A stretch of 64,000 nucleotides of DNA from an uncultured Gammaproteobacteria bacterium (GCA_964586925.1 CAZPJI010000009.1:3683-67682), one strand, 5' to 3'; shown: positions 33,888 to 38,107, numbered from the stretch's first letter. Notes: a model not told the origin generated them from the letters alone. Translations and numbers: made by a program.

Positions 33888-34166
33888 CTACTTGCGTTCA
33901 GTTCGGTTTATTTCTGACTTAAGGCGGGTGGCAATACGCTTTCTTGCAACTTCGTCAAGCCGGGTTTCTGCGGTTGCTGATTCCAGGACCTTGCGAAAAT
34001 GACCGGATTTCATCCACCGGCGCAGGAGGGCGAGCTGCTTCTTGTATTGCTGACAACCGTCACACATGTGCAGGTGAAGTCGCAGCATAAGCCGGCTATG
34101 CCAACTGATCGGGTGATCCATTTGATCGGATAGGGTGCGGGCCGCTTCGGCGCAGGTCATCATCAC
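33888..34166 (-). CDS. Zinc-finger (zf-HC2/ZAS-type) anti-sigma factor, soluble
   Basis: 92 aa with HLHMCDGCQQY (H-x3-C-x2-C). A 4-nt overlap couples it to the upstream ECF sigma gene. Confidence 0.7.
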   Translation of the reverse strand: MMMTCAEAARTLSDQMDHPISWHSRLMLRLHLHMCDGCQQYKKQLALLRRWMKSGHFRKVLESATAETRLDEVARKRIATRLKSEINRTERK

Positions 34167-34813
34167 GCTTCATTTCCTGTCGATGGTTGGGAGAACCATG
34201 AGCGTTGTATGCAGTCACGCAGTCCGAGACGTGCGCGATGCAGTCTGACCCACAGATTGGATTTGGAAATACCTATGGAATCACAGACCTCATCGCTGTC
34301 CACGTCGTCGATCTCGATCAATCTGATGGCGACCGAAAGCGTTTTTGGAAGACCGTTGATACAGCGCTCGATCATATTCCAGAACTGGTCGTGCTCTACC
34401 ATGCTGTCAGGGTCTTGCCAAATACCCGGCGGCTTCCGCCAGGCACCTGAGCTGTCGAAGTTGCGTTCCAGAAGCGTATCGTTTCCGGGTTCGATTTCGA
34501 TCTGGATTTCGCGTGTGTTATGTCGGAATTGATCGAGTATCTTGTGCTTGAGGATTCCGAACAACCAGGTCTTTTCACTGGATTTGCCTTGATATTTGCT
34601 ACAGGCGTTAAGGGCTGCAAGTAAACATTCCTGTACGGCATCCTCGGCTTGGGTGCGATGGCGCAATCGTGCATACGCATAGCGAAACATTTCATCCCCG
34701 TATCTGTCCAGCCAGCTTTCTGGATCCAGTTCGTTTTCCCGGGAGGCTTTCTCTGGTGAGTCTTTCACAATAGGATCTCCATCTGGAGGAGGAAGGTTGC
34801 CATCGGCATTCAT
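34163..34813 (-). CDS. ECF (sigma-70 family group 4) RNA polymerase sigma factor
   Basis: Region 2 (FRYAYARLRHRTQAEDAVQECLLAALN) and region 4 HTH (SDEVCDSIGISKSNLWVRLHRARLGLRDC). Confidence 0.85.
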   Translation of the reverse strand: MNADGNLPPPDGDPIVKDSPEKASRENELDPESWLDRYGDEMFRYAYARLRHRTQAEDAVQECLLAALNACSKYQGKSSEKTWLFGILKHKILDQFRHNTREIQIEIEPGNDTLLERNFDSSGAWRKPPGIWQDPDSMVEHDQFWNMIERCINGLPKTLSVAIRLIEIDDVDSDEVCDSIGISKSNLWVRLHRARLGLRDCIQRSWFSQPSTGNEA

Positions 34814-35028
34814 GCGGTTTCTTCAGTGCAACGTCTTGCAATGCATTCCGAATGCGTTTCGATAGCCGAAACCATCTTCCTGACCAGTGCGGGGCGAGAG
34901 AATGACGGGTCGTCCATGTAGTTATTCACACTTGCGGCTGAGAATATTAATACCATAAAAACAATGGCGATCACACCTCCTGCAAACAGGAGATACTCCG
35001 CCACTTGTTTGGAATGTCCTCTGAACAT
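34810..35028 (-). CDS. Small single-pass membrane protein (72 aa) translationally coupled upstream of the ECF sigma gene
   Basis: The hydrophobic core LLFAGGVIAIVFMVLIF, then a Cys/His-containing tail (HSECIARRC). An ATGA overlap couples it to the sigma gene. Confidence 0.45.
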   Translation of the reverse strand: MFRGHSKQVAEYLLFAGGVIAIVFMVLIFSAASVNNYMDDPSFSRPALVRKMVSAIETHSECIARRCTEETA

Positions 35029-35111
35029 GTTCCTCTCCTTGAGTTCTGCATTGGATCATCCCTGCCAAGCTTCCGTTGCTCTCCGTTGTGCAAAGCAATG
35101 GAAAGGGGTGA

Positions 35112-36077
35112 TCATCGAGATATTGCCACCTTCGATGCGCTCAAAATGGGGTTTGATCGAGACCGTTTACCTGTGCCGGTAAGCGTCACGTAACCGGCAC
35201 CGAGAATCGCTCCGTACACGAGGCTGAGCACCAGTAAAAGTGCGACGCCTACCCATCCGAAACGCCATGCGAAGAGACCGGCGTGTCCGAGAGGCGCAAC
35301 TGTCAACATAGCGAGCAACCAGGCGCCGAAACCGAATAAGGCACCACGTACGGCTGAGTGGCCCGGGAGGTGCGGATAGAGCCAGGCGAAGGCCAGCCCC
35401 CCGATGACGATTGCCGCAATGAGGAATATCATCCATCCGCCGATAACACCTGTATGGGTGGCTTTGCCGATCAGCATCGCTGGGTCGAGCCCCGGCAATA
35501 CACCGTTTAGTGTCTTGAGCAGCAGGATGGCGCTGAGTGCGGCAGTCGCCATGAATGCGGCGCCTCCGCCGCCCAACCAGCGGTTGAGGTCTGCGTATGC
35601 GAGCGTTGAGTCGGCGGGTTTGAAGCCACTCGGGAAAAGCCGTGTGAGCAAGTGATCCAGAGAGAGCCGGCCCGGGCCGTAAAAGGTCAGTGCCAATAGC
35701 ATGAGTCCCCAGGCTTGGTGGTCCGGGAAACCCGTTGACCAGATGTCGGGGTAAGATGCGACGGCAATGATGTTGTAGACGAACAGGAAACCGGAAACGT
35801 ATCGCCCCATCAGACCGAAAGCCAGAAGCGCCGGAAACACGAGTTCTGCGAAAGTGCCGGTATAAGCGGCGACGGCAGGGCTGAGCAGGGGAGTGTGGTA
35901 GACGTATTTAAACAGCGCAATAGTGCCGGGCATGTCCGCAATTTTGGTCAACCCGGAACGGAAAAAGGCTTCGGCGATCCATAGTCTCATGAGAAGCATG
36001 GCAAGGGGTGTCGAATAGGCGAGCCAAGCGTTCACCCGTTGGGATAATCCCAGTCCGCTTCGTACGATGTTCTTCAT
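35112..36077 (-). CDS. DoxX-family integral membrane protein (bufferin-operon BufD-like)
   Basis: Multiple TM helices. DoxX-like N-terminus (LAMLLMRLWIAEAFFRSGLTKI). The ATG at 36077 with a GGAGA RBS is preferred over 36140. Confidence 0.75.
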   Translation of the reverse strand: MKNIVRSGLGLSQRVNAWLAYSTPLAMLLMRLWIAEAFFRSGLTKIADMPGTIALFKYVYHTPLLSPAVAAYTGTFAELVFPALLAFGLMGRYVSGFLFVYNIIAVASYPDIWSTGFPDHQAWGLMLLALTFYGPGRLSLDHLLTRLFPSGFKPADSTLAYADLNRWLGGGGAAFMATAALSAILLLKTLNGVLPGLDPAMLIGKATHTGVIGGWMIFLIAAIVIGGLAFAWLYPHLPGHSAVRGALFGFGAWLLAMLTVAPLGHAGLFAWRFGWVGVALLLVLSLVYGAILGAGYVTLTGTGKRSRSNPILSASKVAISR

Positions 36078-36862
36078 CTTGATTCTCCGAGTGTCGATGT
36101 GGCGGCGAAGATGCCAGCCGTATGGTGGCGTTGTAAGCACGCCTCAAGGTCGAACGAATCGCTCGATTCTTCGGCGCATGCCAGTGCCGCAGTCAAGCAC
36201 GCCCCGTTCGCGCAGGCGTCGAGAAACACATACTCTCCGGCATCCAGTGCCAGTACCAGAACGTCGTCATGAGGTCGTACGATCAAAACGCGCTCGCTAC
36301 CAGCGTTCAGCGCAGGTGGTTCGCCGGGCTCGTCCTCGAGGCAGTAACGCCACAGCGTCAGGACCGGGTATTGAGACGCCACAAGCCGGACGCTCGGATG
36401 GATCGGCAGCCGTTCGTTGCCGGGGAGAATCGAGGCCGGGTCGAATGGATTGGCGTCGGCCGCGAGCAGCGCTTCCTGTCGTGCCCATTCGAGCCGGGCG
36501 ATGTCGGCCAGATAGGGGATATTTGCCGCCTCGGGAAGGTGAGCCAGAAAATCGGCGAAGCCGGCACCGTATCGATTGAGATCTCCGTACGAGGAAGGAT
36601 GTGCGCCTACGAAACGTTGGGTGGCGCCTTCGAAAAAGTCGTCGCCCACGAGTCGCGCCACGGCGGGGAAGCTCGTAAGCAGGGCATCGGTGAAATTGAG
36701 CAGGTAACTGTTGCGGTACACGGCCATGCGTGCTGCTGGCGTCAGTCCGGCGCCGTGCACCCATTGCAGCACGCGGCTATCTTCGCCGCGAACGTGGCGG
36801 ACAAATTCCTGCTGGGTTTCAAGCAGCGCAGGCACGTGTTCTCTCCAAAATCGACTCGGCAT
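36074..36862 (-). CDS. DUF2063 domain protein (MNIO partner, BufC/MbnC-like)
   Basis: N-terminal DUF2063 signature (LTPAARMAVYRNSYLLNFTDALLTSFPAVARLVGDDFFEGATQRFVGAHPSSYGDLNRYG). It overlaps the 3' end of the DUF692 gene. Confidence 0.8.
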   Translation of the reverse strand: MPSRFWREHVPALLETQQEFVRHVRGEDSRVLQWVHGAGLTPAARMAVYRNSYLLNFTDALLTSFPAVARLVGDDFFEGATQRFVGAHPSSYGDLNRYGAGFADFLAHLPEAANIPYLADIARLEWARQEALLAADANPFDPASILPGNERLPIHPSVRLVASQYPVLTLWRYCLEDEPGEPPALNAGSERVLIVRPHDDVLVLALDAGEYVFLDACANGACLTAALACAEESSDSFDLEACLQRHHTAGIFAATSTLGESR

Positions 36863-37697
36863 GATTTGCTTCGTCCAACAGGGTCTCCAGCGGCGGGATG
36901 TCGCGGTCCCACTCGATCAGGGTCGGTCGCGGTCCCAGGCGCCCGATGGCATGGGTATAAAGATCCCAGACCGGCGTCGCGACGCGCCTGCTGTGCGTGT
37001 CGATGAGTAGGGTCACGCCTTGCACATCTTTGCGAATGTGTCCGGCAAGATGAATTTCCTCGATCGCTTTGACCGGCATCGCGTTCAGATAGTGGTATGC
37101 GTCGAAAGCGTGGTTGACCGCGTTCACGTAGATATTGTTGATGTCGAGCAGAATGCCGCAGCCGCTGCGCTGAGCGAGTTCTGCCAGAAATTCCCATTCC
37201 GGGATGATTGAGTCTGTGAATTCAAGGTAGCTGGATACGTTCTCGATCAGGATTCGCCGGCCGAGAAATTCCTGCGTCTGCTCGACGCGTTCAACGATGT
37301 GGGTAAGCGCCTCCGCCGTATAGGGCAGGGGCAGGAGGTCGTTAAGGTGTACGCCTCCGGCAGCACCCCAGCATAGATGCTCGGAAACCAGGCCGGGAGA
37401 AAACCGATCGACCAGGGACTTTAATTGTGCAAGATGCATGTCGTCGAGCGGGTCCGTCGAGCCCAGTCCCAGGCCTACCCCATGCAGGCTCAGCGGGTAC
37501 TCGCAACGCACTTTTTCCAACAGTCGCAATGTCGGACCACCGGCGGCAAAAAAGTTTTCGCTATGGACTTCAATGAAACCAACTGCCGGTCGACGCTCAA
37601 GTAGTTGGGAGTGATGCGGCGGCCTGAGGCCGATCCCGGCGTGTGCCGGGATCGACTCCAGTGCCGGACACGAATGCTGTCGCGCCGGGGATGACAT
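36819..37697 (-). CDS. DUF692 / MNIO (multinuclear non-heme iron-dependent oxidase, MbnB/BufB-like; TIM-barrel)
   Basis: GIGLRPPHHSQL...VGFIEVHSENFFAAGG...YPLSLHGVGLGLGS...VSEHLCW...DLLPLPYT...RRILIENVSSYLEF matches the HI1600/MbnB family consensus. Confidence 0.85.
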   Translation of the reverse strand: MSSPARQHSCPALESIPAHAGIGLRPPHHSQLLERRPAVGFIEVHSENFFAAGGPTLRLLEKVRCEYPLSLHGVGLGLGSTDPLDDMHLAQLKSLVDRFSPGLVSEHLCWGAAGGVHLNDLLPLPYTAEALTHIVERVEQTQEFLGRRILIENVSSYLEFTDSIIPEWEFLAELAQRSGCGILLDINNIYVNAVNHAFDAYHYLNAMPVKAIEEIHLAGHIRKDVQGVTLLIDTHSRRVATPVWDLYTHAIGRLGPRPTLIEWDRDIPPLETLLDEANHAESILERTRACAA

Positions 37698-38008
37698 CAG
37701 CCGGCGTTACCGGGTGTGGTGCTGCCGCCCGCGATCTTATGACATAGCCCCGCCGGAACGAGCAGAAATGCGCTCGGATCGCGGGCCTTTTTATCCTGTC
37801 CGGCGCAGGAGTGCCCCGGCGATTGGCAATCGTTCTTGAAGGCCGCGTTGATGCCGTAGCATTTTTCCATGCTGGTGCTGGTGGGCATTGTTTTCATCGC
37901 GTGTGCCTGGCTCATGTTGCCGGCAAAAGCGCCTTGAGTGCCCGCAAGAGTGCTTGCCGCGACGAGGCTGGCAAGGGCCGATTTGATGACGAGTGAACGT
38001 TTATCCAT
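37697..38008 (-). CDS. DUF2282-type Cys-rich secreted precursor peptide (bufferin BufA-like)
   Basis: 104 aa. Sec signal peptide (MDKRSLVIKSALASLVAASTLAGTQGAFA), then a core with four Cys in the conserved pattern EKCYG-x8-NDC-x5-HSCAG-x17-GLC. RBS GGAGA ahead of the ATG at 38008. An ATGA overlap couples it to the MNIO gene. Confidence 0.75.
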   Translation of the reverse strand: MDKRSLVIKSALASLVAASTLAGTQGAFAGNMSQAHAMKTMPTSTSMEKCYGINAAFKNDCQSPGHSCAGQDKKARDPSAFLLVPAGLCHKIAGGSTTPGNAG

Positions 38009-38079
38009 GAAAATATCTCCAATAAATACAAGTACATAAAAGTCACAACCCGCTTTGTTATTGGGATGCAACTGCGAGT

Positions 38080-38107
38080 TAGTCGGGTGAAAGATAGATT
38101 CCTTACA
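38080..38107 (-). promoter_or_regulatory. Candidate ECF-type promoter (GTAAGG-N15/16-CGAC) about 70 nt upstream of the precursor gene
   Basis: The reverse complement reads tGTAAGGaatctatctttcaccCGACtaac. It resembles the GTAACC-N16-CGAA class of ECF promoters. This is inference only. Confidence 0.3.

Follow-up and report, generated by a model that had tools for sequence, protein, structure and literature searches.

A Predicted Neisseria-Type Sigma/ZAS Anti-Sigma Switch in a Bufferin Operon of an Uncultured Gammaproteobacterium

Organization of the Locus

The window, meaning the whole 64-kb stretch of DNA (64,000 nucleotides) that was analyzed, carries on its minus strand at 33888-38106 a tightly packed single-strand row of ORFs running from bufA to the gene for an anti-sigma factor, with neighboring genes either overlapping or separated by short gaps. 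The row begins with a bufA1-type precursor gene (37697..38008) encoding a DUF2282 protein of 103 aa with a signal peptide, identified from a gene call and a match to Pfam PF10048 (69.7 bits). This is followed by the gene for the MNIO maturase BufB (36819..37697), which scores 393.8 bits against NCBIfam NF050167 MNIO_BufB with a cut-off of 310 and also matches Pfam PF05114, and by the gene for a DUF2063 partner of the BufC/HvfC type (36074..36835; gene call of 253 aa; Pfam PF09836, 84.7 bits). The fourth gene (35112..36077) encodes a DoxX membrane protein of 321 aa with a C-terminal DUF6789 fusion, for which Pfam gives 51.5 bits for DoxX (residues 48-128) and 44.1 bits for DUF6789 (residues 189-323). 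All four domains of a Buf1 cluster, namely the DUF2282 precursor, MNIO BufB, the DUF2063 partner and DoxX, are therefore present and in order.

Downstream of doxX on the same minus strand lie a 72-aa orphan ORF (34810..35028), a gene for an ECF sigma factor (34163..34768) and a gene for a putative soluble ZAS anti-sigma factor (33888..34163). A search of the stretch from doxX to the anti-sigma gene revealed nothing resembling a terminator. The identical locus is present in three or four metagenome assemblies. When the single DoxX-DUF6789 protein was used as query, a genome scan gave no match and a metagenome scan returned one truncated DoxX match. No match to DUF1109 was found in any of the seven operon proteins, such that the locus is not of the SigF/NrsF type, and no msrAB target is visible in the 64-kb window.

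The Sigma Factor and the Anti-Sigma Factor

The sigma ORF spans 34163-34813 and encodes 216 aa when read from its ATG. A GTG at 34768, giving a protein of 201 aa and having GGAG 8 nt upstream, was favored by one gene caller and by the alignment of 21 homologues; other gene calls (loci L003 and L004) take the ATG start. From these comparisons the 216-aa ATG start at 34813 appears the less likely one. The protein passes TIGR02943 with 165.3 bits against a cut-off of 162.2 and matches PF04542 (53.7 bits) and PF08281 (33.8 bits), confirming the ECF sigma gene proposed in the initial annotation with both its Sigma-2 and sigma-4 domains (Sigma70_r2 and r4_2).

The ORF for the anti-sigma factor occupies 33888-34166 and encodes 92 aa when read from a GTG, while an ATG at 34163 gives 91 aa. 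The ATG is the likely start, since the M-x-x-C beginning that it creates is common to every relative; the length of 92 aa first reported is correct for the ORF from the GTG, but the relatives favor a protein of 91 aa. The start of the anti-sigma gene overlaps the sigma stop at 34163-34166, with the same overlap being seen in the relatives. Counted from the ATG, the protein has Cys4 and the motif H30-LHM-C34-DG-C37, and these four residues are invariant in an alignment of the five closest homologues and present in approximately 45 wider homologues from related loci. Its 91 residues include 3 Cys and 6 Met.

The anti-sigma factor scores 23.1 bits against Pfam zf-HC2 (cut-off 22.2) and 59.5 bits over residues 2-49 against NCBIfam NF052368 'antisigmaE' (cut-off 50), a cut-off that the relatives at L013, L015 and L025 also exceed. 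The match to TIGR03988 antisig_RsrA is weak (E 0.007; 16 bits vs a family cut-off of 62.5). The highest 19-residue Kyte-Doolittle mean of the protein is 0.18, therefore no transmembrane helix is expected, and its homologues are all 49-110 aa long with a 19-residue hydropathy mean never above 1.3, indicating a soluble family. A single-sequence AF2 model places helices at residues 4-14, 21-33 and 37-53, where a class I anti-sigma-domain fold would have them, but with low confidence (pLDDT 65). Foldseek comparison of this low-confidence model with the PDB gave no match with E <2, a profile search against PDB sequences returned only noise and a word-indexed homologue search found only the protein itself.

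Sigma and anti-sigma are clearly real genes, both passing family models and having conserved homologues. On its sequence, the anti-sigma factor is assigned to the soluble ZAS proteins of the Neisseria MseR type, with zinc binding predicted from the conserved Cys/His positions. The earlier description of a soluble zinc anti-sigma factor with an HxxxCxxC motif and no transmembrane helix is borne out by the zf-HC2 match, by H30, C34 and C37 and by the hydropathy maximum, and the cytoplasmic sensing derived from it is a reasonable reading for a soluble ZAS protein.

The Promoter Upstream of bufA

A predicted ECF-sigma-dependent operon promoter is located at 38078..38106 on the minus strand, with GTAAGGAAT as its -35 element, a 12-nt spacer and CGACTAAC as its -10 element. 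In full the site reads GTAAGGAAT-CTATCTTTCACC-CGACTAAC and is preceded by a T-rich stretch, which places the candidate promoter TGTAAGGAAT-N12-CGACTAAC approximately 70 nt upstream of the bufA ATG. In Neisseria, the published sigmaE consensus consists of GTMAGBWTT, a spacer of 12-13 nt and CGTCTAAH, and 38078-38106 is the best match to it in the window, with 2 mismatches. The exact string GTAAGG-N15-CGAC has one single occurrence in the 64 kb, which is the bufA site. When scored with a weight matrix for which 28 intergenic sites of relatives were the only input, the bufA site reached 37.5 bits compared to 9.3 bits for the next site in the window and a maximum of 17.6 bits in 30 shuffled windows. 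No copy of the motif was found in front of the 72-aa ORF or the sigma gene.

The motif is strongly enriched in related loci, with 54 occurrences across 53 loci (1.05 Mb) against approximately 2 expected, and in the relatives it stands before known or likely target operons. In the loci of the closest sigma homologues it precedes a divergent DUF302 gene, while at L009 and L011 a copy also precedes the operon that follows the anti-sigma gene. The proposal that the sigma/anti-sigma pair regulates the RiPP operon, made initially from the gene content, is supported by this sigma-type promoter in front of bufA.

In the relatives, the promoter motif was also observed within the sigma gene itself, approximately 100 nt before the stop, where it is formed by the codons of a region-4 peptide C-K-x-L-x-I-x-(A/P/S/T)-T-N. 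Where residue 2 of this peptide is Lys, the Cys codon is TGT in 26/28 sequences (23% background), the Lys codon is AAG in 28/28 (56% background) and codon 8 ends in G in 27/27 (38% background), and where residue 2 is not Lys the Cys codon is TGC in 14/18, all of these being counts over related sequences and hence not independent. At ten loci with the order sigma-antisigma-precursor-MNIO, no strong site other than the internal one (22-29 bits) lies upstream of the anti-sigma and RiPP genes. Where the bufferin operon possesses an intergenic site of its own, as at L025 and in the window, the internal site has decayed, and the sigma peptide of the window reads CDSIGISKSN. That codon bias keeps the motif, that the internal site is the only strong one at these ten loci and that it decays where an intergenic site exists together suggest a sigma-dependent promoter embedded in the sigma coding sequence, which in the relatives would drive the anti-sigma and metallophore genes.

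Linkage of the Switch to MNIO Clusters in Relatives

Scanning of species-representative genomes with the sigma alignment yielded 45 loci of the same sigma family with 33-46% identity. An MseR-type gene lies immediately downstream of the sigma gene in approximately 38 of these sampled loci, and an MNIO gene is found within approximately 1 kb in 14 of the 45. Most of the 14 MNIO-linked loci carry a precursor of the HvfA 'KCGExKCG' type and not a DUF2282 protein. Methylobacillus sp. MM3 (L015) exemplifies relatives in which the genes run sigma-antisigma-hvfA-MNIO. The closest relatives of the sigma factor, metagenomic sequences with 60-70% identity, have no bufferin neighbors and are accompanied instead by the divergent DUF302 operon. 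As these closest relatives lie away from bufferin genes, what the window shows is a bufferin operon to which a mobile two-gene switch has been attached in a lineage-specific manner.

The 72-aa ORF and Alternative Readings

The ATG of the 72-aa ORF is preceded at 5-6 nt by AAGGAGAGG, a strong Shine-Dalgarno sequence. The encoded protein is hydrophobic at residues ~12-30, with one predicted transmembrane helix, and ends in HSECIARRC (H-x2-C-x4-C); AF2 models helices at residues 5-38 and 45-71, with residues 11-30 confident (pLDDT >90). No family match was found in Pfam or NCBIfam. A search of 5.8 billion clusters found no homologues, an exhaustive phmmer search of 1.84 billion representative proteins none save a spurious 452-aa match (E = 6e-4) and tblastn (E up to 10) none in approximately 55 related sigma loci, 14 of which have MNIO clusters. 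The only copies found are identical ones from the same organism. In the closest sigma relatives there is no room for the ORF, nor is there space for it at L013 and L054, where doxX lies directly upstream of sigma. Judged by these searches, the 72-aa ORF is an orphan and not a conserved component of the switch.

Two other identities for this region were considered and set aside. That the spacer forms a structured RNA or a leader was rejected, with a z-score of -1.1 and a Rfam Trp_leader match below threshold. The ORF as a second 'CxxxxC' RiPP precursor, despite its C-x4-C and signal-like N-terminus, was judged unlikely because it has no homology, carries a hydrophobic stretch of approximately 19 residues resembling an anchor and is positioned after doxX rather than before the MNIO gene.

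The 72-aa ORF is probably a translated, lineage-specific small membrane protein, an assignment held with modest confidence. Of the 23 AAGGAG sites in the window, only those of three long genes and of the 72-aa ORF stand before an ORF reaching 60 codons or more, and elsewhere in the window AAGGAG correctly spaced from an ATG is found only at real genes or at very short ORFs (4-24 codons). In shuffled versions of the 343-nt spacer an ATG ORF of at least 72 codons arose in 4.4% of trials, falling to 0.2% when a Shine-Dalgarno 5-mer was included, and the frame of the ORF has the best codon score among the six. These observations count against the ORF having arisen by chance in an AT-richer spacer, a junction remnant dating from the attachment of the sigma/anti-sigma pair to the bufferin operon at its 3' end; such a chance origin is nonetheless a substantial possibility, if not the favored one. 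The ORF's GC content of 47.5% and GC3 of 0.49 (49%) are like those of the flanking intergenic DNA (50-53%), with GC3 being 55-80% in the other operon and neighboring genes checked. Its codon score of -0.15 is below that of 98% of the true-gene chunks of the window and is exceeded by 26% of spurious ORFs. The ORF is moreover an orphan whose one known SNP, from four metagenomic copies, is non-synonymous (D39E), and the sigma gene of the closest relatives is preceded by a promoter region of 150-190 nt instead. Under the chance-ORF reading, basal expression of sigma and anti-sigma might come from a weak constitutive promoter within the spacer; counting against that reading, searches of the doxX-sigma spacer found no sigma-70-like promoter for basal sigma expression, no terminator and no stable RNA structure.

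It is improbable that the 72-aa protein acts as a His/Cys sensor of metal or redox state, anchored in the membrane or located in the periplasm, that is translationally coupled to sigma and relays an envelope signal to the anti-sigma factor. The rarity of such an ORF with its Shine-Dalgarno sequence in shuffled spacers would be consistent with a functional protein, as would the confidently modeled helix, with a positive N-terminus that would place the H-x2-C-x4-C tail in the periplasm. Yet the protein and cluster searches and the related loci are devoid of homologues, the switches of relatives work without the protein and its codon usage is poor. The initial annotation had proposed this ORF as the missing membrane or metal sensor, a role that the searches do not support, and the absence of the ORF from related loci in the tblastn comparison is the outcome that it had itself named as refuting the idea. 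The ATGA coupling that it described is present in the sequence as an overlap with the sigma ORF but applies only with the less likely 216-aa start, and as the homologue-backed GTG of sigma lies 41 nt downstream such coupling is doubtful. Likewise improbable is that the ORF encodes a recent small membrane protein whose H-x2-C-x4-C tail, lying in the periplasm, binds copper or responds to the redox state of the envelope, thereby modulating the bufferin pathway or the sigma switch in this lineage; if true, a known module would have gained an accessory factor de novo. Finally, the sigma/anti-sigma pair could merely be a neighbor that controls, for example, methionine sulfoxide reductases elsewhere, with another regulator driving the bufferin genes. 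The closest sigma relatives do adjoin DUF302 and transporter genes rather than bufferin genes, and the Neisseria regulon also takes in msrAB, but the sole strong sigma-type promoter of the 64 kb is the one immediately in front of bufA, the genes follow one another closely on a single strand and members of this sigma family are repeatedly found linked to MNIO clusters, making such a bystander role very unlikely.

A Model for Regulation

Taken together, it is likely that 33888-38106 forms one autoregulated operon, predicted to be co-transcribed, under the control of a Neisseria-type sigma/ZAS switch. The simplest reading is that one sigma-dependent transcript extends from bufA through the anti-sigma gene, in which case the single transcript would have the order P(sigma)-bufA-bufB-bufC-doxX/DUF6789-ORF72-sigma-antisigma. 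At rest, by analogy with MseR and RsrA, the anti-sigma factor would hold sigma via its N-terminal anti-sigma domain, which would be stabilized by the Cys4/His30/Cys34/Cys37 site. An oxidant or thiol-reactive species would then modify the thiols, and perhaps the six methionines too, such that sigma is freed and could transcribe from TGTAAGGAAT-N12-CGACTAAC upstream of bufA. The output would be a periplasmic copper-binding bufferin together with its maturation enzymes, while the same transcript would yield more sigma, giving positive feedback, and more anti-sigma factor, resetting the switch as in Neisseria.

The best guess for the signal is that reactive chlorine or another thiol-reactive stress, which may itself be secondary to copper, would modify the Zn-thiolate site, by oxidation or in another way. 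In Neisseria meningitidis, H2O2, diamide and singlet oxygen failed to induce the sigmaE/MseR system (PMC2893595), and gonococci switch on msrAB as well as the ecf operon upon contact with neutrophils.

Comparison With Known Systems

Like the sigma factor of the window, Caulobacter vibrioides SigF is an ECF sigma factor whose gene adjoins a DUF2282-DUF692-DUF2063-DoxX cluster, and SigF induces buf1 and buf2 under stress. The anti-sigma factors are unrelated: NrsF of Caulobacter is a DUF1109 membrane protein with six helices and an extracytoplasmic sensing function, whereas that of the window is a soluble zinc-finger protein of 91 aa. The contrast drawn at the outset between this locus and Caulobacter regulation is therefore correct as to the membrane location of NrsF, but does not amount to a novelty, the Neisseria arrangement having been characterized in 2006-2010. 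The bufferin surveys of 2024-2025 that were consulted name sigma factors and NrsF in Buf1 clusters with the ZAS family going unmentioned, and this omission may be the reason that ZAS control seemed new.

SigR/RsrA of Streptomyces coelicolor, the prototype soluble ZAS redox switch, has a soluble anti-sigma factor in which the H-x3-C-x2-C motif and another Cys, 26 residues upstream, are spaced as in that of the window. It differs in sigma group and regulon, and the oxidants that trigger RsrA failed on the Neisseria relative (PMC2893595). In Pseudomonas aeruginosa, FroR/FroI comprises an ECF sigma factor and a small Met-/Cys-rich anti-sigma factor, is induced by HOCl and chloramines and has a regulon that includes methionine sulfoxide reductases. 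The composition of FroI is reminiscent of the anti-sigma factor of the window with its 6 Met and 3 Cys in 91 residues, and FroR/FroI with froABCD is offered as a lead only for a related system. A link between froABCD and bufferins was discarded, the literature match having been to the word 'buffering'.

IncFII plasmids of Klebsiella quasipneumoniae and Enterobacter (e.g., NZ_AP026424.1) carry a sigma/zf-HC2 pair beside DUF2282-DUF692-DUF2063-DoxX-CMD-MsrP-MsrQ, such that both this pair and that of the window adjoin a complete bufferin cluster. The plasmid sigma factor is 38% identical to that of the window, and the anti-sigma factor 46% identical over the N-terminal 48 residues. The plasmid pair differs in its convergent arrangement, in an anti-sigma factor of only 68 aa and in having MsrPQ within the operon, and the GTAAGG-N15-CGWC motif was not found at the plasmid locus. 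With the related loci described above, these plasmids identify the ZAS switch as a recurrent regulator of MNIO metallophore clusters with precursors of both the BufA1 and HvfA types, in Proteobacteria and on clinical plasmids.

The closest parallel is with Neisseria. MseR of N. meningitidis (NMB2145) has Cys4/His30/Cys34/Cys37 and inhibits sigmaE (NMB2144) (Hopman et al., 2010, PMC2893595), with mutation of Cys4, Cys34 or Cys37 weakening or abolishing its anti-sigma activity (PMC2893595). MseR is co-transcribed with NMB2140-2143 (PMC2893595), whose counterparts in Neisseria gonorrhoeae encode DoxX, a periplasmic protein, DUF692 and DUF2063 (PMC2954202); such a gene set today goes by the name of bufferin cluster. 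That a bufferin-type operon can be under cytoplasmic ZAS control is thus already documented, and the mechanism is of a known kind.

Like the window, the Neisseria locus pairs an ECF sigma gene (sigmaE or Ecf, NMB2144/NGO1944) with an overlapping gene for a small soluble ZAS protein (MseR, NMB2145/NGO1943), and the two anti-sigma factors have the same four Cys/His positions, those of Neisseria being taken from the publication. The Neisseria unit is autoregulated, with sigma and MseR co-transcribed with bufferin-type genes, as would be the case in the window. The Neisseria promoter, GTAAGGTT-N12-13-CGTCTAA, corresponds to GTAAGGAAT-N12-CGACTAAC in the window. The gene order is doxX-bufA-bufB-bufC-ecf-mseR in Neisseria vs bufA-bufB-bufC-doxX-ORF72-sigma-antisigma in the window, and only the window has DoxX fused to DUF6789 and the extra orphan ORF. 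The bufferin operon of this uncultured bacterium can thus be assigned a predicted Neisseria-type cytoplasmic ZAS switch rather than one of the Caulobacter membrane-sensor type, and the defined promoter motif makes regulon prediction possible in such genomes.

Promoter Motif Within the Sigma Gene

The ECF sigma gene of relatives contains the sigma-dependent promoter motif TGTAAGG-N15-CGAC(C/T)AAT within its own coding sequence, as at the related loci L005 (6484-6513), L015 (6436-6465), L024 (6457-6486) and L029 (6472-6501) and at about 25 further loci. The codons holding the motif encode the region-4 peptide CKxLxIx(A/P/S/T)TN, and codon choice here is strongly biased among these related, hence non-independent, sequences, with TGT in 26 of 28, AAG in all 28 and a codon 8 ending in G in 27 of 27. 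As judged from this codon usage the motif is kept by synonymous codon choice in the sigma genes of relatives. At ten loci with the gene order sigma, anti-sigma, precursor and MNIO maturase, no strong site other than the intragenic one precedes the anti-sigma and RiPP genes, and the motif is probably an internal promoter. It is missing from the window sigma gene at the corresponding position (~34262-34291, minus strand).

Gene Content of Related Loci

The closest relatives of the window's sigma/anti-sigma pair (L007:5362-5946, L009:912-1477, L011:293-857, L094 and L096; 60-70% identity) adjoin a divergent DUF302 gene carrying its own motif copy, with some having a further copy ahead of a downstream operon encoding an outer-membrane Phenol_MetA_deg-like protein, an MFS transporter and a HAD hydrolase. 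No bufferin genes were found near the pair in these five relatives, indicating that the regulon of the switch varies among close lineages.

In acidobacterial and verrucomicrobial loci one sigma gene is followed by two tandem MseR-type anti-sigma genes (L021:4027-4663, L022:6708-7357 and L023:6654-7365), each with a motif copy before or after it, and 5 kb of L023 holds six copies. In Thiobacillus MAGs, HvfA-type 'GKCGEGKCG' precursors adjoin members of the window's sigma family (L029:6886-7320, L031:6903-7334); these precursors include an internal EF-hand-like calcium-binding segment matching lanmodulin and XopAW models.

In Klebsiella quasipneumoniae and Enterobacter, conjugative IncFII plasmids also carry a sigma/zf-HC2 pair (L098/L100; NZ_AP026424.1, 23096-28851), facing a DUF2282-DUF692-DUF2063-DoxX-CMD-MsrP-MsrQ operon in which mobile DNA brings bufferin genes together with genes for the repair of methionine sulfoxide in the periplasm. 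A search of these plasmid loci for GTAAGG-N15-CGWC gave no match.

Features of the Window Operon

Within the 72-aa ORF, a weak match to the Rfam Trp_leader family (34955-35009, minus strand; E 0.009) is probably due to chance, scoring 28.5 bits against a gathering score of 41, with the folding energy of the spacer carrying the ORF not unusual (z -1.1). The window's DoxX protein (35112-36077, minus strand; 321 aa) carries a C-terminal DUF6789 membrane domain, whereas the DoxX genes of related loci match only the DoxX half of this fusion.
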